Shown: positions 1 to 47,500 of the stretch, one piece after another
Layout of the letters: every line of letters begins with the position of its first letter
How positions within the stretch are numbered: position 1 is the stretch's first letter
Origin: a virus
Length of the DNA stretch: 64,000 nucleotides
Direction: 5' to 3' (one strand)
IMG/VR virus record: IMGVR_UViG_3300036760_000069
Location: 1 to 64,000 of that record
Notes under the pieces: model-generated
What the model saw: only the letters and a program-made list of their open reading frames with translations
Database searches by the model: none
Told to the model about the DNA's origin: nothing
Position numbers and translations under genes: made by a program

Positions 1-214
1 CCGACAAGAGGCAGTTAAGTCCTGCCGTCGTGACACTTTTGGCTTGGGCATTCATCACGGCCTTGACGCGCACACCTGTGGGCACCGTCAAGACTCGCGT
101 GACCGCCGCCGTCCCCGGGTTCGTCACATTCACGTCAAGGATGGCTACGTCCCAGGTAAAGTCGTCGCCCACCTGCGAGAACTTCACCCACTGGGCCGAG
201 CCGTTGGTCAGCCC
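1..214. repeat. Direct repeat, copy 1 (second copy at 59599..59812)
   Basis: Base-by-base comparison shows 2 mismatches over 214 nt; weaker homology continues to about 535 / 60127. Confidence 0.95.
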
Positions 215-1321
215 AGCGCCGATCCGCCTTTTGTAATCGTAGTTCGTGGGCATCGTCGGGGCCGAGGCACTGGTACTACACAGCACATCCACCACGCTCG
301 TATCCGTCCGCTTGATGACGTAGAAGTGATACCATGTGGAGTTTGCAATGGCCCCCGTATCCAGGCACCCTGCCGCCGCACCAACTGCCCATGCCGAGGT
401 CGTCTTTGCGGTCGACGCGGCGAGGGTTAAGGTATCGACGTTGCCAGAGTCTGTGGCTTGCCCAGCGGCGACGGTGAGCGTGGCAGAGGCCCCCGCCGTA
501 CTCATCGTGAGGCCCGCGAGGTACGAACGCGGGATCTGAACGGTGCTGGTAATCGTGATCGTGCCAGCCCCAGTTGAGCAATTTACCCCAGAGGAACAGG
601 ACAGCGACCCAGCAACCGGGATATTGCCAGTGCTACCGATGGCGAGTTGCCCGTTCGTCAAGGCAAGGGACGCAAGGAGCTTGTTGGTGTCGCCATACAC
701 CAACGCTTTTGCCGTCAACCCGGAGTCCGTCAGCCCTGCAAACGTCGGCGAGGCTCCGGTGTCAATGTTCTGCGGGGTCGACAGCGTGAGCGTGCCCGCC
801 CCTGGCGTCACCGTAATCTGGTTGGTCGTGCCAGCAATCGTGCAGACCGCCGGAATGGCCCCGGTCGAGCCGCAAATCATCTGCCCGTTGGTCAGCGCGG
901 CAAAAGACACCAGTGCGCCCGTCGCGTCGATATAAGGAAGCGTCTTGATCGTCAGGCCAGGAATGATCGGGTTCGAGGGAAGCGAGAGCGCGATCGTCCC
1001 AGCCCCTAACGTGACGGTGAGTTGGTTCGCCGTGCCAGCGATCGAGCCGAGAACTGGGGCAACCCCTGTCGATCCAATCAGCAATTGACCGTTTGTCGGG
1101 GATCCAGTGGACTGCAACAAGCCCGCCGCCCCCAAGTACACCATCCCGTTGACGGTCAGGCCGGCACCGCTGATCTTGAGGCCGCCCGTGAAGGTCTTGG
1201 TGCCTGTCACGGTCTGCGCGCTCTCCAGGTTCATCTGGGTCAGCGTGACGGCCTGAGCAGGGCTGACGAACAGCCCAGCTACTAAAATCGCCGCCAGTAG
1301 TTTTTGAATAGTAGTTCGCAT
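1..1321 (-). CDS. Fibre-like protein with N-terminal Sec signal peptide (runs off window start; absent from ORF track)
   Basis: Hand translation from ATG at 1321 (TGATG overlap with upstream stop): MRTTIQKLLAAILVAGLFVSPAQA|VTLTQ..., three TNGQxxxGSTGxxP repeats, then a PRSYLAGL...YDYKRRIG...WVKFSQV domain shared with 59384..60898. Confidence 0.8.
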   Translation of the reverse strand, partial: MRTTIQKLLAAILVAGLFVSPAQAVTLTQMNLESAQTVTGTKTFTGGLKISGAGLTVNGMVYLGAAGLLQSTGSPTNGQLLIGSTGVAPVLGSIAGTANQLTVTLGAGTIALSLPSNPIIPGLTIKTLPYIDATGALVSFAALTNGQMICGSTGAIPAVCTIAGTTNQITVTPGAGTLTLSTPQNIDTGASPTFAGLTDSGLTAKALVYGDTNKLLASLALTNGQLAIGSTGNIPVAGSLSCSSGVNCSTGAGTITITSTVQIPRSYLAGLTMSTAGASATLTVAAGQATDSGNVDTLTLAASTAKTTSAWAVGAAAGCLDTGAIANSTWYHFYVIKRTDTSVVDVLCSTSASAPTMPTNYDYKRRIGAGLTNGSAQWVKFSQVGDDFTWDVAILDVNVTNPGTAAVTRVLTVPTGVRVKAVMNAQAKSVTTAGLNCLLS

Positions 1322-1764
1322 CAGCTCACTCCTGCCGATCCCAGCCCGACGGTGATGGTGACGGTGCAGCCCGCGCACCCGGTAATCGGGGCCGCCATGA
1401 GGTTATAGCCAAAGACTCGGCACTCCCAGGCTCCGCTCGTAGTAGTCGACGTCACCGAGACCGTCCGATCCGCCGCGGTAAAGCACTCCTTACTCACGAA
1501 GTTCGTCCCATCCACAGAGGTCTGAAAGGTGACGGTAAAGGCGCCTGTCCCGAACACCTGGATCGTCGCGGTCGTGGCGTTCTTGACGTTCGCCACATTG
1601 CAGGTATTGACGCCAGACGGATTGCCGGAGTCCTTGCAGAGCGCGACCGCGCCCGTGTTGCTTGTCTTCACCGAGGCCAATGTGACGGTCTGGACGGTGA
1701 CAGCCGAGGCCGGTACCGCCAGTATCAACGCGAGCGCGAGCGTCAGGAGGCTAGTTCGCCACAT
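1321..1764 (-). CDS. Signal-peptide beta-rich protein, decoration/fibre-like, six Cys
   Basis: GAGGAG RBS then MWRTSLLTLALALILAVPASA|VTVQ; TVTFQTSVDGTNF beta-strand pattern. Confidence 0.7.
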   Translation of the reverse strand: MWRTSLLTLALALILAVPASAVTVQTVTLASVKTSNTGAVALCKDSGNPSGVNTCNVANVKNATTATIQVFGTGAFTVTFQTSVDGTNFVSKECFTAADRTVSVTSTTTSGAWECRVFGYNLMAAPITGCAGCTVTITVGLGSAGVS

Positions 1765-2473
1765 CGGCCGCTCCTCGATAGAGTTCCACCCAGTTCGTGC
1801 CGTCGTAGACAAAGGTGATCGCCCGGCTGAAGCCGTTCGCCGGTTGTGCCCAGGCGGCCCCGAGTTTGTAGAGGGTATCCCATGTCAGTACGCCGAGTGC
1901 CCCGCCGGCGGTATTCCGCACTAGGACCGTCAGATGTTGCCCAGTCGTGGCGGCCGTCGGATTCGCCACGGTAAACGCTGTGCCGTTGGTCGCCGTGATC
2001 CTGAAGGTGTTCCCCAGCGAGGCCGTGATCGTCACGGATGCCCCGTAGGTTGGGTTGACCAACCCCGCCACCACCGCCTTGCTCGCCGTGACGTTGGCGA
2101 CCCCCAGGCTCGTCGTGAGTGTCAGGGCGTTGAAGGTAGGGCTGGCGGTCGTCCGAATGTCCTGGATGGCGTCTAGCGTGAGTGTGCCCGCCCCTACGGT
2201 GGTCGTCAGCGAGGCCAAGGCCCCGATGGCGATGGTACTGGCAACAGGGACGGCCCCCGTCGAGCCGATCAGGAACTGCCCGTTGGTGAGTTGGACGGCT
2301 GTGAGGACTTGCGTGGTGCTGAGATAGAGGGCCGATTTCGCCGTCAATCCGGTGAATTTGGGCGTGCCGCTGATGACGGAGACGGGGCCCCCCGGGTCGA
2401 ACACATCCGCCGCCCTCGCGCTGACAGGGGCAAGGAGAAAGACCGCAAGAAGCGTGGCAAGGATCGGGCGCAT
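1751..2473 (-). CDS. Signal-peptide fibre-like protein
   Basis: MRPILATLLAVFLLAPVSARA|AD; TNGQFLIGSTGAVP repeat as in 1..1321; C-terminal fibre-tip-like domain (ITFVYDGTNW). Confidence 0.75.
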   Translation of the reverse strand: MRPILATLLAVFLLAPVSARAADVFDPGGPVSVISGTPKFTGLTAKSALYLSTTQVLTAVQLTNGQFLIGSTGAVPVASTIAIGALASLTTTVGAGTLTLDAIQDIRTTASPTFNALTLTTSLGVANVTASKAVVAGLVNPTYGASVTITASLGNTFRITATNGTAFTVANPTAATTGQHLTVLVRNTAGGALGVLTWDTLYKLGAAWAQPANGFSRAITFVYDGTNWVELYRGAADVAN

Positions 2474-2474
2474 T

Positions 2475-3137
2475 TTATGGTTGCTGCGTCCAGGTGGCGG
2501 AAATCCCGTAGAGGCGATAGACCCCCGTGTTTTGCATGACGGCTGTGAAATCCATGCCGACTGAGGCGTTCGCCGTGTTCATAAACGCCGGTGTCCCCAC
2601 GCCGCCGGAGGTGAGATAGGGATTGCCTTGCGTGGCCGTTGGGAGCGTGATCGTGATGGCGCCCCCGTAGGCCGCCACGGCGTTCGCCACGTTATTCGCA
2701 TAGGTTGTGGTCGAAAGGGCGTTGAAGGTGTTGCTCGTCAGCGCCGCCGTGCCGATAAAATGCGAGACGCTGAACGCGGTGAGTTTATAGCCTTTGCCGC
2801 TCGTCGTGCGGGTCGGGGCCGGCAGCTCGCACCGGATATTGTACGTCTCGGCGCCGCCCGCCGTGCGCGCCAGCGCCCAATCGTTCGACGCCACGCGGGT
2901 ATTGATGAACAGTGCATTGTCGGACCGGCAAAAGATCACCGCTGAGTAGACCCGCACAATGTCGGTCGGGGCCGTCTGCCCGCTGGCCGTCCAGGTCGTG
3001 CTGTCCGGCATCGTCACCGTGCCGGTAAAAGTCGGCGAGGCGCTGGGCGCGTTCCCGGACGGCTGGGAGATGGTTTGCGCCCACACGGGCGAGCCGGAAA
3101 GCAACATCCATAAGGCAAGGAGGCGCAGGGTCTTCAT
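2475..3137 (-). CDS. Signal-peptide fibre-like protein
   Basis: ATGA overlap at 3137; MKTLRLLALWMLLSGSPVWA|QT; ASPTFTGTVTMP fibre motif. Confidence 0.7.
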   Translation of the reverse strand: MKTLRLLALWMLLSGSPVWAQTISQPSGNAPSASPTFTGTVTMPDSTTWTASGQTAPTDIVRVYSAVIFCRSDNALFINTRVASNDWALARTAGGAETYNIRCELPAPTRTTSGKGYKLTAFSVSHFIGTAALTSNTFNALSTTTYANNVANAVAAYGGAITITLPTATQGNPYLTSGGVGTPAFMNTANASVGMDFTAVMQNTGVYRLYGISATWTQQP

Positions 3138-3718
3138 CCGACCACCGCCGCAGCGGCCTTCTCCGCGAGGGCCTGCGCCTTGCCGATCAGCTCGTCCAGC
3201 TTCGTCTGTCTGGATTTGATGTCCTCGTCCATGGCGTCGAGGCGACCCTGCCGGTCCCGTTGCGTGCCGGCAAAGTCCTCCTGGGCCTGCCGTGCCTGTC
3301 GGGCGAGATCCGCGAGGGCGTTCCGGGTGGCTTCCTCGGCCTCGGCCCGTTCCTTCCCCAAGGCGTCCAGTTTGTCGTCGTGGGCGCAACAGGCCGCGCT
3401 GTGCTTCTCGTCCAGCTCCGCCTTCTTATCCTCAAGGGCCTTTTCAAGGAGGGCCTTCTCACTCTTGAGTTGTTCGTCAAGGGCCTCGATCTCGCCCTGC
3501 TTGGCATCGGCCTGCGCCTGGAGGGCGTCCACCTGCGCGCTGAGAGAAGACGCTTCGTTCCGATAGGCGACGAGACGGGCTCCCGCCTGCCCCAGTACCT
3601 TGAGAACAGTCTGCAACCGCCCCAGCGTCGAATAGAACTGGAGGAGGTCGCCGAGTTGGCGCGCCGCTTCCTCGTATTCTTGCGGGGTGATGTCTTGATC
3701 TACGATGGGGTTTGCCAT
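3134..3718 (-). CDS. Coiled-coil protein
   Basis: 194 aa, A/E/K/Q heptad-rich, GGAGAGG RBS. Confidence 0.7.
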   Translation of the reverse strand: MANPIVDQDITPQEYEEAARQLGDLLQFYSTLGRLQTVLKVLGQAGARLVAYRNEASSLSAQVDALQAQADAKQGEIEALDEQLKSEKALLEKALEDKKAELDEKHSAACCAHDDKLDALGKERAEAEEATRNALADLARQARQAQEDFAGTQRDRQGRLDAMDEDIKSRQTKLDELIGKAQALAEKAAAAVVG

Positions 3719-5480: not shown

Positions 5481-5843
5481 TTACGGCATGGCAAGGCCGG
5501 TCAGCTTGGCCGTGACCATGCCATGCGTGTCTTCACGGTTCATCCAAAAAGCCGGAATGGTCAGAAACACGTCCTTCGTCCCGGCGCTGAAACTCACCAA
5601 AGCATCAGCATTGCTCGAATACAGCGAGGTGGTTCTGACCAGCGTCGTCGCGCCGCTCAGCACCCCGTAGCCCTCTTCCCATTCCGTGCCCGTCTGCCCG
5701 ACGATCGCGTACCAGAACGGCTCGCCCACCGCGAGACGGGACGCGAAGGATGAGAACTGCGCCACCGCCCCGGCCAGCGTGAGATCGCCCGTGCCGGTCG
5801 TCGTCGTCGTCTCATGCACCCGAGGATAGAATCGCAGCGCCAT
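5481..5843 (-). CDS. Fibre N-terminal-like structural protein
   Basis: RVHETTTTTGTGDLTLAGA...WEEGYG...FSAGTKDVF pattern typical of phage fibre heads. Confidence 0.65.
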   Translation of the reverse strand: MALRFYPRVHETTTTTGTGDLTLAGAVAQFSSFASRLAVGEPFWYAIVGQTGTEWEEGYGVLSGATTLVRTTSLYSSNADALVSFSAGTKDVFLTIPAFWMNREDTHGMVTAKLTGLAMP

Positions 5844-5890
5844 TATTTACCCCCCCCCGCGCACTGGCTCAGAATGCGGATCGTCGCCAT
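5843..5890 (-). CDS. 15-aa mini-ORF MATIRILSQCAGGGK
   Basis: AAGGAG RBS, G9 tract, stop overlaps next ATG (TAATG). Confidence 0.35.
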   Translation of the reverse strand: MATIRILSQCAGGGK

Positions 5891-5951
5891 CAGGAACTCC
5901 TTTTACACCCGCCCGCCCCGGGCCGCTCTTGAATCGCGCCCGTGTCCCGTC

Positions 5952-6458
5952 CTACACCTGGATCGTCCACGTGCCGTTCTTCTCGAACGGCGACCACTTG
6001 CCCGTCTCCTTGCAGCGGAACCGGATCGAGGAGCCCACAACAGCGGACGCTTCCAGGTATTTATTGATCGTCTGGTCGGCCGGCACGGCCGTCCCCAGCG
6101 CATTCAGGGTGCCGCTGGTAAAGTCCAGCGTGAACCGTTCCCCCGTCGCCGGGAGCACGCGGATGATCTGCGCCGCCGCGGCATAGAATTCCCCCGTCTC
6201 ATCCCCCGCCACGCCGGGCGGCAGGGTGAACGTGATCGTCCCGGCCGCGCCGCTGTTCGTCAGCAACGTGCGATAGTCCGCAATCCGCACCACCGTGTAA
6301 TCCGCCGTCTTCGCCGCCACTTTCAACATTGCGTCCGCCTCCTCTATCACCATCACCGACAGCGTGCAGGACGGATCGGCCGCCGAGTTGCCGGACAGCG
6401 CGCCCAGGTGATAGTCCAATAGCTGCTTGGCCGCGTAGCTGGTGAGATTCGCCGCCAC
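5952..6458 (-). CDS. Putative structural protein
   Basis: KTADYTV...GTITFTLP fibre-type motif; possible internal start (GAGGAGG before MLKVAA). Confidence 0.6.
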   Translation of the reverse strand: MAANLTSYAAKQLLDYHLGALSGNSAADPSCTLSVMVIEEADAMLKVAAKTADYTVVRIADYRTLLTNSGAAGTITFTLPPGVAGDETGEFYAAAAQIIRVLPATGERFTLDFTSGTLNALGTAVPADQTINKYLEASAVVGSSIRFRCKETGKWSPFEKNGTWTIQV

Positions 6459-8444: not shown

Positions 8445-9377
8445 TTAGATGATGACTGTCACCAGCGCCCCACCCGAACCGGCCCCGACGGTGCCCTTGA
8501 AGTTGTTCGTGATATTGGCGATGGTATTGCCGCTCGCGTTCTTGACCGGGCCGGTGACGAGCGAGTTGAACAGGTTCTCCTCGATCTCGATGCCCGCCAC
8601 CTGATCCGCGCCCGTCAGGTCGATACCGACCGTCAAGGCCGTGCCGTAGCTGTGGATGCGGTTGTTGCCGATCCGCAACCCCAGACAGCCGGCGCCCGTC
8701 TGAATCCCCACGGCCCAGGAGCCCGCCGTGTTGTAGATGAAGTTCCCCTCGATCCGGCTGTGCAGGAGGGCTGTGGCGTCAATCGCCGGCCCCTGCGCGC
8801 CGTCCGCATTGAACTCGCACCCCGTAATCAGCACACCCGTCGCGGCCCCCGTCGCCACGATCCCCTTGGTGGCGATGTTCACCACCGGGGTATTCATGTC
8901 GAAGTGGCACCCTTTGACCCGGAGGTTGATGGCGGCGACCGTGAAGTCAAGAAATGACTTGGCCGTAACCGGAACGCACGTCACGCCCACCATGGTAAAG
9001 TCCGTCCCGGTGACGGTGATGCCCTTGTTGGCGGCGAAGGCCGTCAGCACCGCGCTCGGCTTGGCAGCGTCCATCCCGTAGAACGCCTCCGGGCCGTAGA
9101 TCTTCACATTGTTGGCTGTGACCGCCAAGGCCGCCGTCAGCGTATGCGCGCCAGGGAGTAGGACGATGCAATCGCCTCTCCCGCTCACTACATCGGCATA
9201 GGCGGCGTTGACATCGTTGTAGACGTACTTGTGCCGGCCCCGGACATACGCATTGTGCGTCGAGGCGGATCCGGGCAGGACGAACAGCGGCGTGCCGGGG
9301 ATCAGGTTCCCCATGCCGTTTGCTTTTTCGTCGGTGAACTGTTGCCAGGCGTATTTGTCGCGGATTGTGAGACTCAT
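8445..9377 (-). CDS. Right-handed beta-helix (pectin-lyase-fold) virion protein
   Basis: GDCIVLLPG motif and repeated I.gN.i / C.F strands; located just downstream of the capsid genes. Confidence 0.7.
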   Translation of the reverse strand: MSLTIRDKYAWQQFTDEKANGMGNLIPGTPLFVLPGSASTHNAYVRGRHKYVYNDVNAAYADVVSGRGDCIVLLPGAHTLTAALAVTANNVKIYGPEAFYGMDAAKPSAVLTAFAANKGITVTGTDFTMVGVTCVPVTAKSFLDFTVAAINLRVKGCHFDMNTPVVNIATKGIVATGAATGVLITGCEFNADGAQGPAIDATALLHSRIEGNFIYNTAGSWAVGIQTGAGCLGLRIGNNRIHSYGTALTVGIDLTGADQVAGIEIEENLFNSLVTGPVKNASGNTIANITNNFKGTVGAGSGGALVTVII

Positions 9378-27124: not shown

Positions 27125-28530
27125 CAGTTGCCTTTCCGCACGAACAACGGCGCAACGGCCGTGATGCGGGCGTCGGCCAGCGCGATGTAGTCTGGGTTCA
27201 GTTCGATGCCGACGAACTCACGGCCGAGGCGGAGGGCGACCGCCCCAACAGTTCCACTGCCCGTAAAAGGATCGAAGACCACGCAGGGCACCGGCTCGCC
27301 CGCCTTCTTGCAGGCACAGGTCGGGCGCCAGCCAGTCGTCATGGCCTGCGGGAACGCGTTATCGTGATCGTTGCCTCGCGCCCGCTTCTCTTGCCGTACC
27401 ATCGCCAGCCTGTTCGCCGTCGAGCCCTTAGGGTAGGCCGTGCCGGTTGCGCCCTTGTGCGGGATGATCTCCTTCTCGACCACCCGCGCCCACGGCGCCA
27501 TGCACTTACTACAGGCACCGCGCTCGCTGGTGCCGGCGAGGATGCACGGCTCGACCAACTTCTCAGGGAAGGTGGCGAAGTGGGCCTCTTTGAACGGCAT
27601 CGTGGGGATCGTCCAGACGGTGCGCTTGTTGCGGGTCAGCGTTGGATAAGTGTCAGCTCGATCAGGTCGATGCGTACCGACGGTCTGCCCAGGATGCACT
27701 GCTGCTCGTTTTGAGTTTTCGCGTCGAAAGTTATCTCTCGCTGATGGCTTGCTGTACGTGGTGTCGGCATGGGTGCAGGGTTCAGCGATCGCCTCTGCAT
27801 CGTAGTAGTACGTCTGGCTCTTGGTGAGCAGGAATAGGTACTCATGCGCCTTAGTTGGGCGGTCCGTCACCGACTCTGGCATGGGGTTGGGCTTGGCCCA
27901 GATAATGTCGCTCCGCAGCCACCAGCCGTCCGCTTGCAGCGCGAAGGCCACGCGCCAGGGGATGCCGACGAGGTCTTTGGACTTTAATTCCAAAAACTCT
28001 TTTTTCTCGCGGATGGACGCCCCCGATTTTTTTGCAGCGTCGTTCTTCCCGCCCGATGAGCCGCCCCATTTACCAGTAGAAGCATACGTATCTCCGAGGT
28101 TCAGCCAGAGCGTGCCGTCGCTGCGGAGGACGCGGCGCACGTCGCGGAAGACTTCGACGACATGCTCGACGTAGAGGTCGACCGAGGATTCTAAGCCGAG
28201 CGAGCCCGCCCACGCCCCACAAGCTGAACAGACGGCTCCATGGCGAATCTCCTGCCGCTTCCAGCCGACCCGTTTCTCTGGTGCGACCTGCTCGTCCCGT
28301 CCGTTGCGCGTATGTTGCCACCGCCGCTTATCGGTGTAGTTCGTCTCCGAGGTAGCCACCACATCCCGCCAGTCGTGTTCGCAACTTTGTGCCCCCCCCC
28401 AGACCTGCGGCGGGATCTTGTAGTCGCGTAGACCCCAATACGGCGGGCTCGTACACACCATCTGCACCGACTCCGCCGGCATCGTCGCCAGCTCCGTCAG
28501 CACATGGCCCTGGTGGAGGGTGTAGTTCAC
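27124..28530 (-). CDS. DNA amino-methyltransferase (N4-C/N6-A, beta class)
   Basis: TSPPY motif IV precedes DPFTGSGT motif I; HFATFP. Confidence 0.9.
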   Translation of the reverse strand: MNYTLHQGHVLTELATMPAESVQMVCTSPPYWGLRDYKIPPQVWGGAQSCEHDWRDVVATSETNYTDKRRWQHTRNGRDEQVAPEKRVGWKRQEIRHGAVCSACGAWAGSLGLESSVDLYVEHVVEVFRDVRRVLRSDGTLWLNLGDTYASTGKWGGSSGGKNDAAKKSGASIREKKEFLELKSKDLVGIPWRVAFALQADGWWLRSDIIWAKPNPMPESVTDRPTKAHEYLFLLTKSQTYYYDAEAIAEPCTHADTTYSKPSARDNFRRENSKRAAVHPGQTVGTHRPDRADTYPTLTRNKRTVWTIPTMPFKEAHFATFPEKLVEPCILAGTSERGACSKCMAPWARVVEKEIIPHKGATGTAYPKGSTANRLAMVRQEKRARGNDHDNAFPQAMTTGWRPTCACKKAGEPVPCVVFDPFTGSGTVGAVALRLGREFVGIELNPDYIALADARITAVAPLFVRKGN

Positions 28531-35546: not shown

Positions 35547-38500
35547 TTATGGAAAGACGCCCTCGCCAGCGGGGACGAGATCCGCCAGCAAGGGTTTAGC
35601 CGGCGTCAGCCAGTGGTGGGCTTTGAGTTTGGCGATGAAGGCGCGGCGGTCGCCCTCTGGGAGGACTTGGAGCATGGTGGTCGCGTAGTAATTCTCGGCC
35701 CGTTGCAGGATGCGCCGCTCCGCCGGCTCCAGTTGCTTGACCACGGCGTCCCGGTCATTCTTGGTCAGCCCCCAGAGGGGAGTCTTATCCCGGAGCGACT
35801 GGTGCATGGTCTTTGAGGTGCCGCCCAGCTCCTTGTACTCGGCGCGGTATTTCGCCTCGGCGGCCGTGTCTCCGTACTTGATCGAGAGCGCGATGTTCTG
35901 CAAGGCCTCGCCCTTGGGGGTGCGCCAGTAGAGCCCGCCGTCGTCCTTCCCAAGGCGTTGCTTGTACTTGGCCTCGATGTCCTGCCAGCTCTGGTAGGCC
36001 GCCTGGTCGGGGTTGATCTTTCGGATCCCGAGGAAGCCCGTCAGGTTGTCCGATCCGAGGTAGGGCTTGGTCGGCTTGCCGGCGAGGGCGCGTGCCTCCT
36101 GCCCAACGGTCGCCTGCTGGGCCAGATAGTCCCCACGGCTCTGCATCGGGCGCGGGTTAAAGACATCCGGGTAGGTGTTGATACGGCCCACCAGATCCAC
36201 CGTGTCCTTGACCAGCGGGGTGATCCCCTGCCAGACCTTGTTGATCGGGGCGTGCCACGTCTTCTGCCAGATCTCGCCCAGCGTCAGGCGCCCATGCAGG
36301 TAGTCCCCGACCAGCCCGGGGGCCTGGTCGAGGCCGAACCACGACAGGGCATCCCCCAGCGCACCCAGGCCGGTGAAGACCGGGATGCTCCCGTCCTCCC
36401 GTTTGCCACCCAGAATGACATGGATGCGGTTGGCGATCGTGGGGTCCGTGTCCTGCAATTCCCGCTCCTCGTCGTCGAAGACGAAGTTATTCCAGACCTG
36501 GAGCATCGTCCACAGGGCGGCGGCCCGGATCAGGAAGGCGGCGACCTTCTTACCAGCGACACCGGCCCCCCTCGCCCCTGCCCCGTAGTCGGCGTCCTCG
36601 AAGGCGTTCCGCAAGAGATGGGCGTACCGGCCCATATTGACCTCCTGCCAGCTCCAGAAGGGGTACCAGAACCGCCGCAGGGTCTGACCCGCCACAGAAA
36701 CCCGGTCGTAGGCGCCCAGCAGCTCGTTGGAGAGCTTAAACGCCCGATCCCGGATGTCTGGCAAGGCCATGACGGTCTCGCGCCTGGAGGCCCCCCAGTT
36801 CGCCGGGCGGCCCTCTGTGTTACCCTGCATCTGCTCCAGATAGTCGAGGTAGGCAGCGTACCGGAGCATGGCCTCGCGGTAGTCCGTCCCTAACCTCGCG
36901 GCTTTCCAGTATTTATTGAACGCTTCGACGGGCAGAGCCAGCGCGCCACCCTTGCCTTCGCGGTCGATCGTGGCCCGGAAAGCCTTGAGTTCGTTGAGAT
37001 CGCCCATCTCCTGCACCTGGAGGGTGGACCCGTAGCCCCCACGCTCTGCCCATTCCTTTGCCTCGCCGGTCAGGGGTTCATCCTTGAACATGACGGGCCA
37101 CATCTCTTTGATGGCCTGCTGGACCTTCTTGAAAGCCCCCGGGTTGCCGACGAACAGGGCATCCGAGTCGCCGGACAGGTTCCGCAGGTTGTACCCGATC
37201 ACCCGCCGCGGGGCGATCAGCATGACCTGCTTCCAGTGGGATAGGGCCGCCCGGTTGAGATCGACAAACCAGTTCGGTGCCGGCTGGGCCAGCTCGTCGA
37301 GCGTGACCGCCACCTCGTCCTTGACGACATACTGCTCGCGGGGCCCGCCCTGGGCCATCATCGTCCGGAGCATCTCCTTGGTCAGGCCCACCTCCTCCAG
37401 CGCGTGTTCGTGCAGGGCCTTGGCGAGCTGGGCGGGGATCGTGTCCGCCATGTAGAAGATGTTGCCCTCGCGGGGCTGCCAGAGCGTGTACCCGTCCGGG
37501 ACGAGATCCTGCCAGGTCTTGTACGCCTTCCCCAGCACGCCCTTGATGAACGCTTTGCGCTCGCCGATCGCCTTGAAGATCCCCAGCGCGTGCATCTGGC
37601 CGGGGGATTCCGGGTCGTTGGCGATGGCCTGAATCTGCTCCATCGTCAGCTTGTCGGCCGGTTGCAGATCGAGCGCGTCCCGGAGGCGGTGCTGGTGCAT
37701 CCCCAACCGCTGGCGGAAGTGCTTCATCTGGACGTCAATGAGGCTCACCCCGCCGGGGGCCGCCAGCTCGGCGTCGATCCGCTTTTGAAGGGTCTGCTGG
37801 TTGGCGGCCCGCGCCTCCCCCTTGAGCCGTTGCCGGATGTTATGGGCCTCGTCGACGCCCTTGATGACCTTGGCGAGCTGGGTGTCGTAGGCCATCTGGG
37901 CCATGACCTCGAACTCGGCCTGGATGTAGTTCGCGTTGATGTCGAAGGTGGACCCCTCACGCTTCTTGAGGAACCCCCGACCGGTCGGCGTCCGGAGCCG
38001 CTTGCCAGACCCAGCAATCAACCGTTGCTCACGGGCATAGTCCAGTACCTGATGCCGGAAGTAGTCCTCCTTGGTCAGCTTCTTGCTCACATCGAACCCG
38101 ATGGCGTCCATGGCCTTCTTGTAGTCGGTCGTCAGGCCCTTCCAGAGTTCCTTTCGAGCGGCCCAGGCGGCTCGAATAGCGGGATCCTTCTGGACGCGAT
38201 CATCAATCCGTTCCAGATCGTGCGTGACCGAGTCCGGCGTGTACTCGAACGGGAGTTTGTTCCCCTTCGCCGCTTCGTGCGAGAGGTCGGTCAGCAACGC
38301 CTTCCATTCGAGGTCGTCGTATTGCATTGGCGAGAGGGGCTTGACGATCCGCGCCAGTTCGCGCTCGATCCGGTCTGCCTGGATGCCCTTCTGCTTCGAG
38401 AGCTTGAGGAGGTCGTTGCGGAGCCGGCTGAACTCGGCGGTATCCGGCAGATGCTCGAACTCGCGGGAGGTCAGGCGCCAGACCTGCTTGAGATGCTCTT

Positions 38501-41500
38501 TGGCCCACTCCTTCCAAGAGATCGGTTGCAGACCCTTCTTGGCCTTGCGAACGCGAGCATCAATAGTCGGATTGGCCGATCTGAACCAGCCAGGCTTTGG
38601 CCCCTCGTTCACCTCCTTCCCGAGCGGCACGCCGCCACGCTCATTGAAGCGGCGCATCTTGGAGATACCCTCGTTCGGCACCCAGGCGAGGATGGCCTTG
38701 ACGCCCTTGTTGATCGCAGCGTACTGCCGGCGGCGGCCGTCGAGAGCTTCGCCGCCTTCGCCGTCAATGATGATCGGGTACTTCCCGGTCGGCGTCTCGG
38801 TGGTCAGCTCGAGTGTCTTAGGGTTGACCGCCTTCAGCGTCCACTTGTCGCCGTACCCGCTGATGCCGTGGAGGTCGTTATAGTCGAGCTTGCCGAAGGA
38901 GTCCTTCAGGGGGAGGGTGTCGAGGTAGTCCTCGAACTCGGCGCGGGTGAGCGTGTCGCCTTGGACAGGCTGGCCTCTCTTGGCGCGACGATCAGGTAGT
39001 GCGGCGCGGGATGATACCGCTTGGGCCGGACGCTGACGGCGGCCTGGTAGAGGGATTTGGGATTGTGCCCCGCCGCCTTCGCCTCCTTCAGGATGTGCCG
39101 CACCGAGTCCGCGTCCACGAAATCGTTCATGGCCGGTGCTAATCTTCTCAAAAACGTCATGTGATTCTTCACCCTGAAAGGGTTTGAGTGTGTCGACGTC
39201 AGCGGCAATTTGTGCAAGGAGAGTTTTGGCACCATTGGGGCCTCCCATGTCGCCCAGCATCACCTCAAGGGCGGCGGCGCTTTCCTTGATCGTGCGGGCT
39301 TGATTGTAACTGTTGATGGCGGCGAACGCTTCATTGTGCGGGCGCACGGACTGATGACTGATTTCATGCACCGCCGTCGAGATCACCATGGCGGCAAACT
39401 CTTTCGCCAGATTCTCCGGCGGAATCCGTCCGTTCAGCACATGCCCATTGACATCCTGGTAGATGTCGTAGGGGTTGATGAGAATGTAGTTGCTCTGGTC
39501 GCCCTTGAAGATCGAACTCCCGCCGATGTTCACGCCGAGGTACTTGCCGATTCCGATCCCCTGGAAGACGACCGATCCGTACTGATCTCCGTAGGGGATC
39601 AGCGCCTTCTGGAGTGGCGCAAAGGCGCGGGCCATCATCAGCGCGAGTTGCTTGACATGCGGTTGGTCCGCCATCTCCTTCAGGATCTCCGGCGGCACGG
39701 TCTGCTCGGTGTCCATGAACTGGAAGTCCGTGCCGGGGACATCCGGGGCCTCCTCGAACGCCTTGCGGAACGTCTCCCGCTCCACATCCAGCGCGTCGGT
39801 GACGAGGTCTTGGATCAGGTACTTGCGGATGACGTCCTTTACATCGCCGCGCAACTTCTCCCGGTTCGTCGTGAAGGGGTAGCCCGTCTGCCCCGGCGTG
39901 CGGCGCGACCGGATGTTGGCGAGGATGGTATGCGGGAGCTTGAGCTTGTGCCCTTTGCCGAAGCTGACGTTGATCGTGAACTGGTAGAGGCCGTTGTTCA
40001 GGATCTGCACCTTGCCTGTCTCCATCTCGGCGGTGCCTTCCGCTGCGGAGAAGTCCACCTCGCCGCCCTGGAACTCCAGCGTGCGTGTCCGGGCCACGCC
40101 CATCGCCTTCCAGTTCTTCTCGGGGTTGATCTCCAAGCCCCCGATCGAGGCCGAGAGCTTGAGCGGCATCTGGTGAAAGGCCGTGACGTTCTCCAGCCAC
40201 TTGCGAATCGCCGGCGTATCGAACTCCATCTTGTCCGGGTACTTGAGCCGGACACGGGTGCCTGGGGTCGCGTCGGGATCGGCCGCCTTGATCGTGGCGG
40301 TCAGGCCCTTCTCCTGGTTCAGCCAGTCGGCCCCGGACCCGCTTAGATGCGTCTCAACCATGCCACGGGCCGGATCGTAGGCGACCGTCTTGATGTCGAT
40401 GTTGTCGGCCCCGGCGAAGATGACCACCTTGGCGACCCCGAACATGCCGGCGGCGTCTTCAGTCTTCTTGCTCCCGCCAAAGTCCACCAGCTCCTTGAAC
40501 GCCACATCAGGGAGCATCCCGGTTCCCGTGTCGTCAATCGTGATCTTGTGATCGTCCGGGAAGACCTCGATCCGCACCATGGCCCCCGCTTTGTCGGTCA
40601 GCCCGCGGGTGCCGTCCGTGGCGTTCTGCACCAGCTCCTTGACGATGACCTTGGAGGGATGCTCGGAGTACAGGCCCTCGCCCATGGCCTTGATGCGGTT
40701 CGGGTCGATGCCGGCGGCGGCCCCGTGCCCACCCTCCTCTTTGACGACCTTGATATAGGAAACATCAGCACGCCCATATTGTGTATCTAACACGACCATC
40801 GCTGGGAACGACTTCGCCCCCAGTAACTTCAGCGCGTCGAAGCGGTGGCCGCCTTCCAACACATACGGGCCTGCCTTACTCCCATCCTCGACGACGATCA
40901 GCGGTTCGATTTCACCAGACTCCTTGATCGTGTTCGCAAGAGCTTCGACCTTGTGCTTCTCTGTCCGGGAATAGAATGAAGGCTTTCCATCGTCTTGAAA
41001 TGCGGAGATCGGCACCTCGCGTACACCGTCAAGTATTTCGTACTTCGTCAGGCTGGCCTTAATGGAGGACTGGTTGGACGCCTCGCCCACCACCCGGCGC
41101 CCATCAACCACATTACCGGCCCGCTTGAACTTTGTCTTGAACGCCTTCATGTGGCTGGTGATCTCGCCCTGCCCCATCTCGGAATCCACGATCTCGGCGA
41201 CGGGGTGGTTCGCCACGATCTTTTCAAAGGCCGAGGCCCCCTTCTCGCCCGTCGGGATGAAGATGCGCGTCTTGAACTGGATGATCTCGCGGAACGCCCC
41301 GGCGGCCTCCAGCTCCTTCCACGCCCGCTCGACCCCGTTGCCCACGATCTCGATGCGCGTCTCGCCGGCGACGGTCTTGCGCTCGAACCGCCACCCGTTG
41401 ACCAGCGCGATCTTGCTCCGCTTCTTGAGGATGGTGTCCATGGCCTGCGCGGGCGTCAGCGTCGGCAAGTCCACCGAGGCCCCCAGCCGGCGGAGAACAG

Positions 41501-44500
41501 CCGACACATCGCCCTCCCGGACCACCCGCCCCAGATACCGCTTGCCGGTGTCGTCCTGGACGCGCATGACTCGGACATGGTCCTGCGGGAGCCTGTCCCA
41601 TATCGGGAGCAAGGTGCCGGAAATCAGATGCAGGGGTTCCTCGCGGTAGGGTGGATGCGTGTCAATCGTCTTCTTCCAGAGGGCTTTGCCGGCGTCTGGA
41701 TTGATCGCCGCGTAGTGCTTGCTCAGGCCGTCCTCGTCCACATAGTAGTACGTCTCGGCGACGGGGCTGATGAGGCGGAAGTGTTTGTTGACGCCTCCCG
41801 TTTTCGGGTCCGTGCGCGTTCCGGTATAGACCGAGGCGAAGACCTTCTCGGTCTTGTTGCTCTGGACGTACCCCTGAAAGCCCTCCTTCTTCTCGACCTC
41901 CTTGGTCTGGACGAAGTTCACATCATGCTTGGTGTCCATCGAGACCATCGACGTTGTGGCGCCGCTGATCGGATCGCGGTAGACCTGTTGTTCCTTGATC
42001 GTCTTCACGCTGCGAGCCTTGTACGTTTCGAGACCCACATCGAGTTGTCCGAGCGAGGCCGCGTGGTCGATCGCCTGCTCCATGCGCTCGCTGAAAGCAT
42101 CGAACACGGCGTTTTGATCGTGGATCTCCAAGGCCAGAATCCGATTAAGAAACTGCGGGACTTTCGGGATCTTGTCCTCGTTGATGGACCCATCATCGGC
42201 GACAAGGCCCGTCAGCCCCATCTTGCCCTCGATCATCTCCTTGAAGTCCACGGTCGGGACTTCCCCGCGATGGGCGTCCAACACCAGTGCCCGCACCGCG
42301 CCTTGCGCGTATTTGTTTTCAAGGTTGTCTTTGGCGTTGATGAGGCCTGAGCTGCCCGTCTTGCGCTCGCCCTTGGTCATGGCCCCAAGCTGATCCAACC
42401 GGCGGCCGATGGTCGAGATAAACCGCTTGTGCCCTTTCAGGTTCGTCATCACCAGCACATAATGCGGGGCATTGGCCTCGTTCGTGCGGTGTGAACGGCC
42501 CAGCCCTTGAATGAACTTTTCCGCCCGCCAGCCAGGTTGCACGCCATAGTGCCAGCGTTGCCGCTGGTTCTTGATACGCCGATCCGAATGGAAGCTGCGC
42601 CCAGTGCCGCCGGCGTCTGAAAAGACAAGGATCGACTTCTTATCAGCAAGGTATTCGTCTACCTCATGGGCGGCGAGCGAGGGTGAACGAGACTGGATCA
42701 CCGTCTTCTCGCGCCCCAGATTGTCTTTGAGGCGCACCACGCGGCGGCTCCGACCCGTGACTTCCGCCACGGCGTCCGGCCCAAAAGTGTTGATGATGAA
42801 CTCCAGCGGGCCTTCGGGTACCTTCAGCGACCCGACCGAGAGAAGCATGTCCTGCTTGAGCTGGATGGCGTCCTGGTTCTGCACGGGGTTGCCATCATGG
42901 TCCAGCACGGGGCGAGACCGGATGTTCCCTTGCTCGTCCTGGTACTGCTCGTACTGTTGCGTCGGAAAGGACTTCTCCAGAAACTGCATCAGGGCATCGC
43001 GTGGCGTGAGATCGAGATTTTCCAGATCGCCGTCTTCTTGCTCGGCGTTTTGGATCTGCCGCTCCATGCCCGCCTCGTTGGTGTTGACGAGTTGAGCGAT
43101 AATGGCCTTGCCATCCTTGATCTTCGCTTCCATATCGGCGATGACGGTGGGCATCTGCATGGCCGTCAGCACCTGATTGAAGAACCGGAGTTCCGTGCCC
43201 CAGAAATTGGAGAGCAAGGTGGACTTGGCGCCCGCGTTCTTGGCCTTCCCGCCCTCGGTGACGCCCGTGAGTTCGAGGGCCTGATTGATGTTTGCCAATA
43301 CCACCTGCCATGCCCGCGCCAGTCCGTTGTAGATGTCTTCTTGTTCTGGCGTCAACACATGCTCAAGAGTGCTATATGTGACCTCTGAGAAGTCGAGCGA
43401 GCGAGCGATATAGACGCCCATGGCCTTCATGTCACGGGCGACCACTTCCATCGCACCCAAACCGCCTTCCGTGATCTTCGCCGAGAAATCATTCTGGTCA
43501 GGGAAGGCCGTACCGGGCCCCCACAGACCGAGCCGTTCAGCATACCCCAGCGTGTCTACCGAGTTCGCGCCGGTCGCCGAGGCATACACAATGCGAGCCT
43601 TCGGCACCTGCTTGCGGAGGTCAAGGGCCGCAAGAGCCTGGATGGAGGCTTGCTGGTGGATGCCACGCGCCCCCATCGACTGCGTGGTCTTTTGCATGTT
43701 ATGGGCTTCGTCGAACACGATCACGCCATCGAAGTCTTTGCCGAGCCACGCTAGGATCTGATTGACCCGCGATTGTTTGGGCTGGTTCGTTTTCTTGTCT
43801 GTAATGGGAATGACCTTGCCGGTCTTATCCGTCATTAAGTTGGAGCGGATCGTGGCATAGGTGGTGAACATAATGCCCTTGGGTTGGTCGATCGGTTCGC
43901 CGAGTTTGGTCTTGCCGAGTTCAAAAACTTGGCCCTTGTCGCCGCCAATATCCACCCAGTCGCGCTTGGCGTCGGCTATGAGCCTAGAAGACTCCGAGAC
44001 CCAGATGGCTTTCTCGCGCCCGTTGCGGAAGTTATCCAGAATGACGGCGGAGATCTGCCGGCCCTTCCCGACCCCCGTGCCATCGCCCAAGAAGAAGCCC
44101 TTGCGCGTCCCGTCTGACAGAAATAACTCATGGGCCTGTCCTGCGTACACGGGCGTCTCGAGCTGGGCCAGCGAGAGGGCGCCGGAATCAATCAGATCCT
44201 GCGGCAGGTTGGGCGTGTAGGTCGGATCGGGCGGGAGCGTGTCCGCCATGGCCGCCGACTCTACCAGTTTGCCAGGGTGCGGTTTGGCACCAGGAATCCG
44301 CACCTTGGGTGGTTGGTACTCGTCGTAGACGGCGTCGGTGAGTTCTTTGGTCGTGCTGGGGAACTTGGATTCAGGTTCGCTGGAAGCGACGACCGTTATC
44401 CCGGACTGAACGGGTATATGGGCGGGTACGTTCCCTTCATCCGCGGGTCGTCCCGCAGGCGCAGGTCGAGGGCCTCCAGTACCTTCACCGCCGCCCGCCT

Positions 44501-47500
44501 TGGGCTCATGGCCTTGGATAGGTCGCTCTCCTCCAGCAACGGGGAGTCCGGGCTCTCTGGGCTGTTGAGGAACCACTCCAGCGCCCTCTTTCCGTCCGGG
44601 TACGCGAGGAGGCCGTCCAGTTTCTGTCGCAGGATGTCGCTGTCCCCCCCCGGCGGTGTGGTCAACCGGCCGTGGTCGAGTCCCCACATCGCCAGTTGGA
44701 ACAGGTACGGCAGATCCGGGTCCGGTTTGGCCCCCGCCACCTTCAGCCACCGCTTGGCCTCCACGTTGAGCGGGTGGTCGTTGTTCGTCTGGTCGGGTCG
44801 CTTGTCCTTCAACGCTGGGGCGGTCATCGCGCACCTCCTTGAGGAGATTGAGGGCTTCATAGGGGTTCTCGGCCTTCCCTGTTACCACCTCTACTGAAGG
44901 AGAGGGGGCCACTTTATCGAAAATCAAGATGCGGTTGTCAAAATCAGTGCCGTATTTCTTGTACCCCTTGCCGGACATGACCACGCTGGCACGAAGCTGG
45001 TACTTCTTGGCGAGGGCGTCGATGGCGCGGGAGACCCCCTCGGACTGCCCCATGAACCCCTCGCCGATCAGGGCGACGAGTCGCCCATTCGGGGCCAGGA
45101 GCTTCAGGGCCTGGTCGATGTGTTTGCTGATGGCGTTGGTACTCTTGCGCTCGCCCGTGATCCGGCCGGCCGTCGAGGAAAACGGCGGGTTCATCACGAT
45201 CACCGTGGGCGTGACTTTGAGGATGTTGGCAATCTGTTCGGCGTTCTCCGTCGTCACCTTGTTGAAGACGATGGTATTGAGGAGTCCGGCCCGCCGCGGC
45301 GAAAGTTCGTTGACATCCACATCGGCCCCGAAGTTCTTGGCGAAGATCGCCAGCCCACCCAAGCCGGCACTTGGCTCCAGCATGACATCCTTGGGGGTGA
45401 TGTGCGCCGCCCAGTTCATCACGAACGCCAGATCCGGGGGGGTCGAGAACTGTTGGAACTCGACCATCTCCGGCGTGCGTCTCGTCCCCTGCGACGGGAT
45501 CTTGTCCATGATCTGCTCACGCAGGTAGTTGAGCATCTCCCGCGCTTTTATGAGGCTATAGGTGGTGGGTCTGTAGACGCCATCAGGGCCCAGCATCTCG
45601 CCGATGAAGCGGTTGATCCCCAGCTCGAGGGCATCATTCAGATCCTTGACGGTGTAGGTGCCGTCCGCCTGTGTGCCCCCAAAGTCCTCATTGGCTCGCG
45701 TGACCAGTTGATCCATGCTGAACGACAGTACACCAGGCGCCGTGTCCTCTTTCAGGCGTTCCTCGACAAAGTAGGCGATGTTCATACTCGCGCCGACGAT
45801 CTTCTGCTCCGTGGTCGCTGGAGCTTCAACCGCCGGGATCGTGGGCTCGTCGGGTAAGACCGCGCCGCGCCCGCCCTTGGTGAGCAGGTCCGCCTTCTCC
45901 TGATCGGTCATGGCGGGCTTCGGAGCGGGCAGGCTGGGGGTCGTCGGGCTGGGCGTCTTCGGTTCGCTGGCCTTGACCTGTGAATCGTAGAAGGCATCCA
46001 ACGCAGACTTCTCGCTCCCGATCGGACGATCAGGCGTCCCCGGCATGAAGCCCCATTTTGAGCCATCTGGGCGGTAGATGTTCCATTCCTTGCCGGTGCG
46101 CCGTGCAGTCCACCCTGCGGCGAGAAATTCATCCTTGGTCATGTCGGCAGGGTTGGCCGTTGGGACGGTCTTTGTCTCTGGCACCAGCCCAGGCGTCTGA
46201 GCTTCGGCCTTCTGCGGATACTCGTCAGGGTGGTGCGCGAGCTTGTACTTCGCGTCCTCGATCGCCCGCTCCCATCGTGCCCAGTCGTCCGGGTAGCCGT
46301 GCGTTTCAAAGTCGTCGAGGCCGGCTTGCGCGACTTCGATGATTCGGTATGGATCGCCAGCATTCTCGGCCTTTGTCAGGGCGCGCTTGTGCTTGCGGTA
46401 GAGATCCTGCCGGAAGTCGCCCGTGGGGGCCTTGTCCTCGTCCTTCCAGCCGCCGGGAGGGGGCTTGTCGGCGACGGTCGGACGCTCAGGAGAAGGCAGG
46501 CCAGGAGCGGCATGGTGTTCGGCCTTGGGTGCTTCCGGTTTTGGCTCCTCTGGTGTTTTCTTGGCGACAGGTCGATAGACTTGGATCCCCTCATCCCCTC
46601 GTTGAATAGCTTCGTAGAGACGGTTATTGCCATCAATCACCTCGCCCGCATGATCCAGCACAATCGGGCCATTCGTCATTGACCCTCGCGGAACAAACTC
46701 GGCGCCATCCCAGAGCATCTCGTTACCTTTACGAAGTGATTCGATCGGCACTCTTGCCTGTTCCCACTGTGAATCGGTGAGATGGGCGTCCTCGTTCTTG
46801 TTTGTTTTACGTCCCAGCTCCGTGTACCCGATAGCGTTCTGAGCGGACTCTGGGAGTTCCTTAAAAGCCAGCGTCTTTATCGATTTGATTTCCTGTTTGG
46901 GGATTGGGAATCCTGGTGCGGCAGGGCGTTCGGCTTTGACTTCTGGTTTTGGCTCCTCTTTTGAGGGCGCAGAACCGGAACCTGCCGGCATCGTCAGCGC
47001 ATCCTGCACCTGCTTCTTCTGCTCATCGCTCAGGCCGTTGTACGGGCGCCCGAACAAACCACGTGCTGCCTCGTTCGGCGTGGCATACTTCTTGGGCGAG
47101 AGGGCCTCATTCGCCGTCTGCCCCTTCCCGACCGTGAAGTTCGCCTCGGCGGCGGCGGCGGCCTCCTCCATCGACGGGTAGGTGCCAAGCGTGTCCTTAC
47201 CGCGAATGTCCCACGCCTCAAACTGCCCGTCGTCGCGCTCAATGACCATGGCCTTCGGCTTCTCAGGATTGCCGCCGGCCCAGATGTAGGTCGATTCGCC
47301 AGGTACGGCCCCATGTTCCCACCCCGCCGGCAAGCCTGTCGTTGGTTCATTCGCCGGAGCCACACCTTGCTCAGTTTGGGGGGCTGGCAGGCCAGGAACA
47401 GGGGTAGGTTGAATGTCGGAGACCCTATCCGCACGCTTCTTCAGGAACGGTTCGCGTTGAACTGGAGCCAATTCTGGCGGAATGGCGGCTACTTCGGCCT

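Follow-up and report, generated by a model that had tools for sequence, protein, structure and literature searches.

Tailed-phage assembly is, in textbook accounts, entirely cytoplasmic, and the locus described here raises the question of why four consecutive phage genes, most of them for fibre-like proteins, should each begin with what looks like a Sec signal peptide. The genes, called A, B, C and D below, lie at the start of the window, by which we mean the first 64 kb of the 87,117-bp IMG/VR virus record IMGVR_UViG_3300036760_000069, where nearly all genes are on the minus strand. We found that their leaders are shared with homologues, and on sequence grounds A-D are probably genuine substrates of Sec and signal peptidase I that are exported and cleaved. 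As to their use after export, we favour, at a probability of roughly one in three, the reading that they are surface and recognition proteins of the virion that mature in the periplasm and are picked up at lysis.

Four coupled genes with predicted signal peptides

The cassette comprises the following genes (lengths in amino acids, aa; positions in nucleotides, nt):

Gene A, 2475-3137, minus strand: 220 aa; leader, disordered linker with ASPTFTG, 160-aa beta-sandwich core, conserved Cys70/Cys103
Gene B, 1751-2473, minus strand: 240 aa; leader, one TNGQFLIGSTG shaft repeat, ASPTF, fibre-type C-terminal domain (residues 135-240)
Gene C, 1321-1764, minus strand: 147 aa; leader, then a body of 126 aa whose six Cys form three close pairs
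Gene D, 2-1321, minus strand: at least 440 aa; leader, three TNGQ shaft repeats, ASPTF, tip at about residues 262-440 (nt 2-538)

Each gene is tightly coupled to its neighbour. At 3137 the ATG of A shares bases with the stop of the preceding coiled-coil gene (ATGA), which places the cassette in the same late transcript as that gene. The ATG of B at 2473 lies one base past the stop of A, that of C at 1764 follows a GAGGAG 7 nt upstream and gives a 14-nt overlap with B, and that of D at 1321 has an AGGAG upstream and overlaps the stop of C (TGATG). GC content at third codon positions (GC3) is 0.75-0.83 in the four frames, and therefore the minus strand is coding and the frames of A-D are confirmed. 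An earlier, sequence-only reading of this DNA had placed the four starts at these same positions, and the coupled ATGs, the ribosome sites and GC3 all bear it out. The C-terminus of D is cut by the start of the contig, with about 70 residues missing as judged from its paralogue.

The leaders have a common architecture: one or two Lys/Arg, 10-14 uncharged hydrophobic residues, Pro at -5/-6 and a small-x-small end.

Leader of A, codons 1-20, nt 3078-3137, minus strand: predicted cut between VWA and Q
Leader of B, codons 1-21, nt 2411-2473, minus strand: predicted cut between ARA and A
Leader of C, codons 1-21, nt 1702-1764, minus strand: predicted cut between ASA and V
Leader of D, codons 1-24, nt 1250-1321, minus strand: predicted cut between AQA and V

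Leaders were called, in the record and in its relatives, by one simple hand-written rule (charge, hydrophobic run, small-x-small). A-D passed it 4/4, in agreement with the basic-hydrophobic-AxA leaders first noticed on all four, compared with 4 of about 91 other minus-strand open reading frames (ORFs) of the 87-kb record; all four of the latter are small membrane or lysis-type proteins. None of the four A-D leaders has a lipobox Cys at +1 or a twin-arginine motif; a true lipobox occurs elsewhere in the record, at 74402-74605. We found no convincing leaderless internal start in A-D. Codon 24 of B (2402-2404), three codons past the predicted cut, is an in-frame GTG with a GAGG upstream, from which a leaderless cytoplasmic isoform of B is conceivable on sequence grounds.

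The leaders are conserved in homologues

The sequence-only reading had proposed examining whether homologues keep the signal peptide, and for the most part they do. At least 50 of 75 A-family homologues pass the strict leader rule, and about 60 of the 75 have a leader by eye. Of 61 A-family leaders, 52 have an Ala-Gln or Ser-Gln junction, compared with 18% of control windows. Pairwise identity in the family is 16% for the leader and 50% for the core, and charge, hydrophobic run and Ala/Ser-Gln junction are kept despite this divergence, which argues for the mode of evolution of a signal peptide and not of a docking helix. Two A homologues in bacterial genome bins also have the leader once the right start codon is chosen.

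The sole full-length orthologue of B (P0127, 67% identity) has a leader, as do 23 of 120 homologues of D. In the D-like subfamily the leader is followed by a conserved mature N-terminus, V-S/T-K-I-Q-x-N-x-x-S-x-Q-T-x-S-N-K-T-F, to which the mature end of D corresponds, and in these leader-bearing homologues the shaft begins directly after the leader. The character of the leader tracks GC content, being of Bacteroidota type in low-GC relatives and rich in Ala/Leu in high-GC ones. Judged from these alignments, the leaders are conserved features and not accidents of gene calling.

Cysteine pairs accompany the leaders

Both Cys70 and Cys103 are present in 59 of 60 leader-bearing A homologues, and neither is present in 15 of 23 leaderless ones, the exceptions being mostly truncated or having borderline leaders. 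The number of Cys in leader-bearing members of the A family is 2, 4 or 6. Within the cassette, A has two Cys, B none, C six (three close pairs in 126 residues) and D three close pairs plus one. The paired Cys seen at first inspection are thus present in A, C and D and absent from B. The pairs of D are 150/160, 242/248 and 319/348; the last lies in the part that aligns with a leaderless paralogue, P0005, which has Gly and Ile at these positions. Among homologues of B and D there is a weak trend in the same direction, with an even, non-zero Cys count in about 60% of those with a leader compared with about 26-31% of leaderless ones. Cys pairs that go with leaders in the A family, C and D are what export into an oxidising compartment predicts.

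Three of the four bodies are fibre-like

The bodies of A, B and D are fibre-like. D has three copies of the TNGQxxxGSTG motif reported at the outset and B has one, and the SPTF motif is present as ASPTF in A, B and D. Tip domains and fibre bodies had been described for all four proteins; fibre-like bodies are borne out for A, B and D and tip domains for B and D (D being incomplete at the contig start), and C is an orphan. Searches of A-D and ten neighbours with Pfam and PHROGs profiles gave nothing above threshold, and they detected no enzymatic domain in A-D; D has a weak BppL_N match (E 0.025, below the family cut-off). These profile searches also found no N-terminal virion-anchor match in A-D, where the leader stands in the anchor's place.

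The relationship of D to an ordinary fibre is close, because the record also encodes its leaderless paralogue:

P0005, 59384-60898, minus strand: canonical fibre of 504 aa without leader; residues 1-131 form a tail-fibre/tailspike virion-anchor domain

Residues 1-131 of P0005 match the N-terminal anchor domains of tail-fibre/tailspike PHROGs (E 1e-23). The C-terminal 180 residues of D align with the tip of P0005 (BLASTP 72% over 207 residues, the last 70 aligned residues being identical), and P0005 lacks the extra Cys pairs of D. The N-terminal 270 residues of D, comprising leader and shaft, match 659 proteins at E of 0.001 or less, mostly with other, leaderless N-termini.

For B, the last 105 residues match 1,442 library proteins at E<=1e-10, mostly as the C-terminal part of proteins of 450-1,200 aa; in viral contigs this tip is carried by proteins of 450-890 aa with ordinary fibre N-termini. 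The domain was modelled with a predicted local distance difference test score (pLDDT) of about 90, and its six best structural matches come without exception from phage spikes or fibres, among them Solidus gp83 (Z 9.1), CBA120 TSP4 (Z 7.9) and the Pa223 capsid spike (Z 7.3); below these six, Z falls to 5.5. It also matches 204 viral models at E<=1e-3.

The model of A (pLDDT 85) has a jelly-roll beta-sandwich core at residues 57-219 (pLDDT above 90). The best structural match of the core is a carbohydrate-binding module (CBM), 7zvo (Z 11.7, root-mean-square deviation 2.9 over 128 residues), and further matches are CBM61 (Z 10.5) and Cry domain III (Z 10.7). The modelled core thus appears CBM-like, a fold that by itself does not establish sugar binding. 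A had no match in 50,697 cultured phage records. Gene C had no sequence homologue among 5.8 billion proteins; its nearest language-model clusters (ESM Atlas) are small unnamed viral proteins, one set of which is partly XepA (0.87), and this serves as a lead only. The expectation that the folds would be of fibre or adhesin type is therefore borne out by the spike and fibre matches of B, the CBM-like core of A and the tip that D shares with P0005.

A leader-bearing gene replaces a capsid-adjacent leaderless one

In uncultured podovirus contigs (L040, L043-L053, L079 and L084), leaderless A-like proteins of 200-225 aa are always encoded immediately behind the major capsid gene, ahead of the genes for adaptor and nozzle. 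In L041 and L042 the same capsid-adjacent slot is filled by a leader-bearing A-like version. Exactly one A-like gene is present per locus, with or without a leader, and in the whole 87-kb record, and therefore the leader-bearing form replaces the leaderless one and is not a duplicate of it. Leaders are also more frequent on one side of the A-like gene in related contigs: downstream, 12 of 68 ORFs have one, compared with 3 of 97 upstream. The related podovirus contigs encode large leader-bearing proteins (477-1,616 aa) after the head genes, some of them with pectate-lyase-like, collagen or BNR signatures below or near family thresholds. The following lie just downstream of the capsid and A-like genes:

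L052, 10780-13335: large leader-bearing protein
L053, 11058-13424: large leader-bearing protein
L079, 2974-8075: large leader-bearing protein
L084, 8967-12421: large leader-bearing protein
L044, 14757-19604: large leader-bearing protein
L050, 17038-19335: large leader-bearing protein

The adaptor of the present phage (56361-57269) resembles, by eye, the proteins in the adaptor slot of these contigs. Its portal is only about 22% identical to those of Roseobacter and Pelagibacter podoviruses, and a query with its capsid returned one short relative only. Among 185,579 species genomes, A homologues were found only in two Methylomirabilota bins of about 70% GC (77% and 54% identity), both leader-bearing (L057 and L058). 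In L057 (JBGQEL010000001.1, 76209-96703) the A-like gene lies between genes for a DnaB/RecA-like ATPase and a tailspike-like protein, and the region is probably a prophage or a binned phage. These bins offer a tentative host clue for the A family.

One genome or two

How D is to be read depends in part on whether the record is a single genome. The record's terminase, portal and capsid genes come in two complete sets, which are unrelated to each other:

Divergent head set, 10-20 kb: terminase, portal and capsid
T7-like set, 59.4-84.5 kb: tail tube A/B, internal virion protein and anchored fibre, with terminase, portal and capsid at 76-84.5 kb
DNA repeat, 1-423 and 59599-60018: 86% identical, with at least the first 100 bases identical

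Both ends of the record lie in internal repeats. The contig begins inside a repeat, as the match of 1-423 shows, and at its other end 86925-87117 matches 27779-27971 at 96%. The record also holds a 214-bp exact repeat that unitigs or short reads could not bridge. A circle closing 1-59598 would give D its missing end, the 71 codons at 59384-59598, and it would restore the usual gene order of the lineage: head, A-like gene, leader cassette, lysis genes, adaptor, nozzle. We therefore lean towards a chimera, in which a phage of about 59.6 kb has been joined to the structural half of a co-occurring T7-like phage. Against a chimera, three near-identical patches link both halves of the record, and the best homologue of D (P0006) sits on an 89-kb contig; the alternative is a very unusual double-module genome. 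The two halves of the contig could not be told apart by tetranucleotide composition. If the phage has 59.6 kb, A-D would be its only fibre-like proteins with recognisable tips, and in an 88-kb genome D would coexist with an anchored fibre bearing the same tip.

Virion parts, decoys or envelope-acting proteins

The preferred reading is that A-D would be four fibre-type, glycan-binding proteins, made late and exported by Sec to the periplasm, where they would be trimmed and folded with disulfide bonds. They would meet DNA-filled particles only when holin and endolysin merge the compartments at lysis, and would serve this phage as its surface and host-recognition proteins after passing through the periplasm. 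We prefer this reading because the four proteins share a compartment, the A-like gene is replaced, the cassette lies in a structural operon, and leader-bearing proteins of the cultured Cellulophaga phage phi18:3 (see below) were found in virions. A whole interacting set must share one compartment, which would explain leaders on all four neighbours. The step of joining the particle is argued by analogy, from synteny, the one-for-one replacement of leaderless relatives and the cultured precedent. Several points weigh on the other side. If the contig is one genome, an ordinary fibre with the tip of D is already present, which fits a decoy better. The link between leader and Cys may reflect a single ancestral event, since leader-bearing A members form a closer clade; taken together, A-D are close to the contig mean in Cys content, and B has none. 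Mass spectrometry (MS) of purified Cellulophaga virions, moreover, does not prove export or attachment of the proteins. A wider form of the reading is doubtful but worth stating: a two-compartment assembly in Caudoviricetes, convergent in several lineages, in which Sec-exported, disulfide-bonded recognition or decoration proteins would be added to finished particles at lysis.

The sequence-only reading had seen in these genes exported fibres that either join the virion at lysis or act as receptor-masking decoys. Its export part is supported, as far as sequence comparison goes, by leader conservation and the leader-linked Cys pair; of the two fates, joining the virion is tentatively preferred and the decoy is unlikely. 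As decoys, A-D would be exported without ever joining the particle and would mask the receptor glycan in the envelope and debris of the infected cell, blocking superinfection by the same or a competing phage and sparing progeny from debris. The tip of D is that of the anchor-bearing fibre with the anchor swapped for a leader, leader-bearing D-like homologues pass straight from leader to shaft, and exported phage proteins that block entry are established in textbooks (T5 Llp, phi80 Cor, T4 Sp and Imm); the idea gains weight if the contig is one genome. However, one protein would suffice for a decoy, and here there are four different ones, including the orphan, Cys-rich C. The A-like gene was never duplicated into a virion copy and a decoy copy, Sec export reaches only the periplasm and not the cell surface, and phi18:3 virions did contain leader-bearing proteins of that phage. 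It is quite unlikely that A-D are instead exported accessories acting on the envelope, binding capsule or exopolysaccharide for release or aiding lysis as proposed for XepA, an exported PBSX protein, with the fibre domains serving only as targeting modules. The cassette would lie just upstream of the lysis block if the contig closes at the repeat, A has a carbohydrate-binding-module fold, and C has its weak XepA lead; yet A-D have no detected enzymatic domain, and the leaderless relatives of A sit in head modules and not in lysis cassettes.

Two further explanations dispense with export altogether. The hydrophobic N-termini could be membrane tethers on the cytoplasmic face, or assembly or docking helices, of ordinary cytoplasmic virion parts. 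Residues 2-13 of A, within the leader, are modelled as a helix, and the detection of the Cellulophaga proteins in virions would then need no new route. This explanation is improbable: a docking helix would keep its sequence, while leaders that are only 16% identical keep their charge, hydrophobic run and A/S-Q junction; the leaders take on the flavour of the host, and the Cys pair tracks the leader. An artefact of gene calling, with the wrong strand or wrong start codons, has a negligible chance of being correct. A simple GC3-minus-GC2 gene caller did prefer short plus-strand ORFs in this region, and B has its in-frame GTG at codon 24, but the minus-strand ORFs are long and have the GC3 given above, hundreds of database proteins align to them, and the leaders on the homologues' own N-termini effectively refute it.

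If the preferred, periplasmic route is real, fibres could fold with disulfides and without cytoplasmic chaperones. It would change the production of recombinant receptor-binding proteins and engineered phages, as well as the way gene callers and annotation handle leader-bearing 'hypothetical' proteins in structural modules, and it would couple the timing of lysis to particle maturation. If A-D are decoys instead, they would represent a new class of receptor-masking exclusion factor derived from the phage's own fibre modules.

Other features of the record

Several features lie outside the cassette:

3134-3718, minus strand: coiled-coil protein of 194 aa upstream of A, without leader
5952-6458: leaderless protein of 168 aa
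15239-15448: ORF of 69 codons between the portal and upstream genes, with a leader-like or transmembrane N-terminus
35547-49394: single ORF of 4,615 aa, downstream of the adaptor and nozzle genes
8445-9377 and 76114-77049: parallel beta-helix-like repeat proteins of 310 aa, shortly after each capsid gene
5853-5893 and 73222-73262: 41-bp segment, 40/41 identical between the copies, which lie one in each structural module, in short stretches that are intergenic or hold mini-ORFs

Over 140 residues the 168-aa protein shares 29% identity with the C-terminal part of P0111, which is a D-like fibre with a leader; it may be a free tip-like domain encoded in the same operon. A match of the 120-aa protein at 5481-5843 to a fibre N-terminus in L031 was dropped (E 0.74). 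The two 310-aa proteins are 39% identical and are the only protein pair common to both head modules; they may be small spikes borne on the capsid or tail.

Comparison with known systems

T7 gp17-type anchored fibres are represented in this record by P0005, whose tip D shares, and the TNGQ and ASPTF motifs of shaft and collar are of a type that hundreds of fibre proteins have; A-D differ from anchored fibres in carrying a leader in place of the anchor, and D in its extra paired Cys. T5 Llp, the Cor proteins of phi80 and N15, and T4 Sp and Imm are exported phage proteins that block entry. Like A-D they are phage-encoded, with Sec-type signals and an envelope-acting role, and they are often encoded beside the receptor-binding gene; unlike A-D they are small lipoproteins or membrane proteins without fibre architecture, whereas A-D are fibre modules with no lipobox. 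Filamentous-phage pIII is a Sec-exported receptor-binding protein that forms disulfides in the periplasm and joins the particle outside the cytoplasm. It resembles the export and periplasmic disulfide route proposed here for a phage receptor-binding protein, but inoviruses are put together at the membrane, without a capsid formed beforehand, whereas the present phage is tailed, with a terminase, a portal and an HK97-type capsid.

Porphyromonas phages carry genes with Q-rule signal peptides, in which the cut by signal peptidase I exposes an N-terminal Gln, and the rule has been read as an adaptation to the host secretion system (Matrishin et al. 2023, PMC10367356). Their Ala-Gln junction is the same as in A and most of the A family. 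Unlike A-D, those genes are of unknown function and are read as modifiers of the host envelope, with no fibre or virion parts named among them; their host belongs to the Bacteroidota, whereas the relatives of A are high-GC and two are in Methylomirabilota bins.

The closest architectural parallel is found in cultured Cellulophaga phages (Pachyviridae). In phi18:3 (KC821620), gp085, gp086 and gp087 (547, 785 and 559 aa) have Bacteroidota-type leaders ending in SQ/AQ, and the record annotates them as 'structural protein, annotation based on experimental MS/MS proteomics analysis'. Phage phi46:3 (KC821622) has five consecutive leader-bearing genes (gp079-083), while its other structural proteins that were checked (gp095, gp099, gp109-112, gp117-119) and gp120 lack leaders. 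In both phages the leader cassette is followed by lysis genes. As in the present phage, three to five consecutive large late proteins with Ser/Ala-Gln leader ends lie beside lysis genes, and the head, portal and ejection proteins have no leader; unlike here, the proteins have no detectable sequence similarity to A-D, the hosts are Bacteroidota and the phage family is another one. The leaders pass without comment in these records, and export there is predicted from sequence only. The statement that tailed-phage fibres lack signal peptides therefore needs qualifying, given leader-bearing Cellulophaga proteins detected in virions by MS. Leader-bearing fibre or receptor-binding proteins are present but unremarked in cultured phage records, and a search of the literature on secretion signals of tailed-phage fibres found no paper describing them. 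The sequence-only reading had seen in the locus its best candidate for an undescribed system; the public records already contain such cassettes. With the same architecture in culture, the Cellulophaga phages make either fate, virion part or decoy, directly testable. Set against these systems, what is new here is a high-GC, non-Bacteroidota lineage with leader-bearing fibre-type proteins, a clean family-wide link between leader and Cys pair, the one-for-one replacement of a capsid-adjacent leaderless protein, and anchored and leader-bearing fibres with an almost identical tip.

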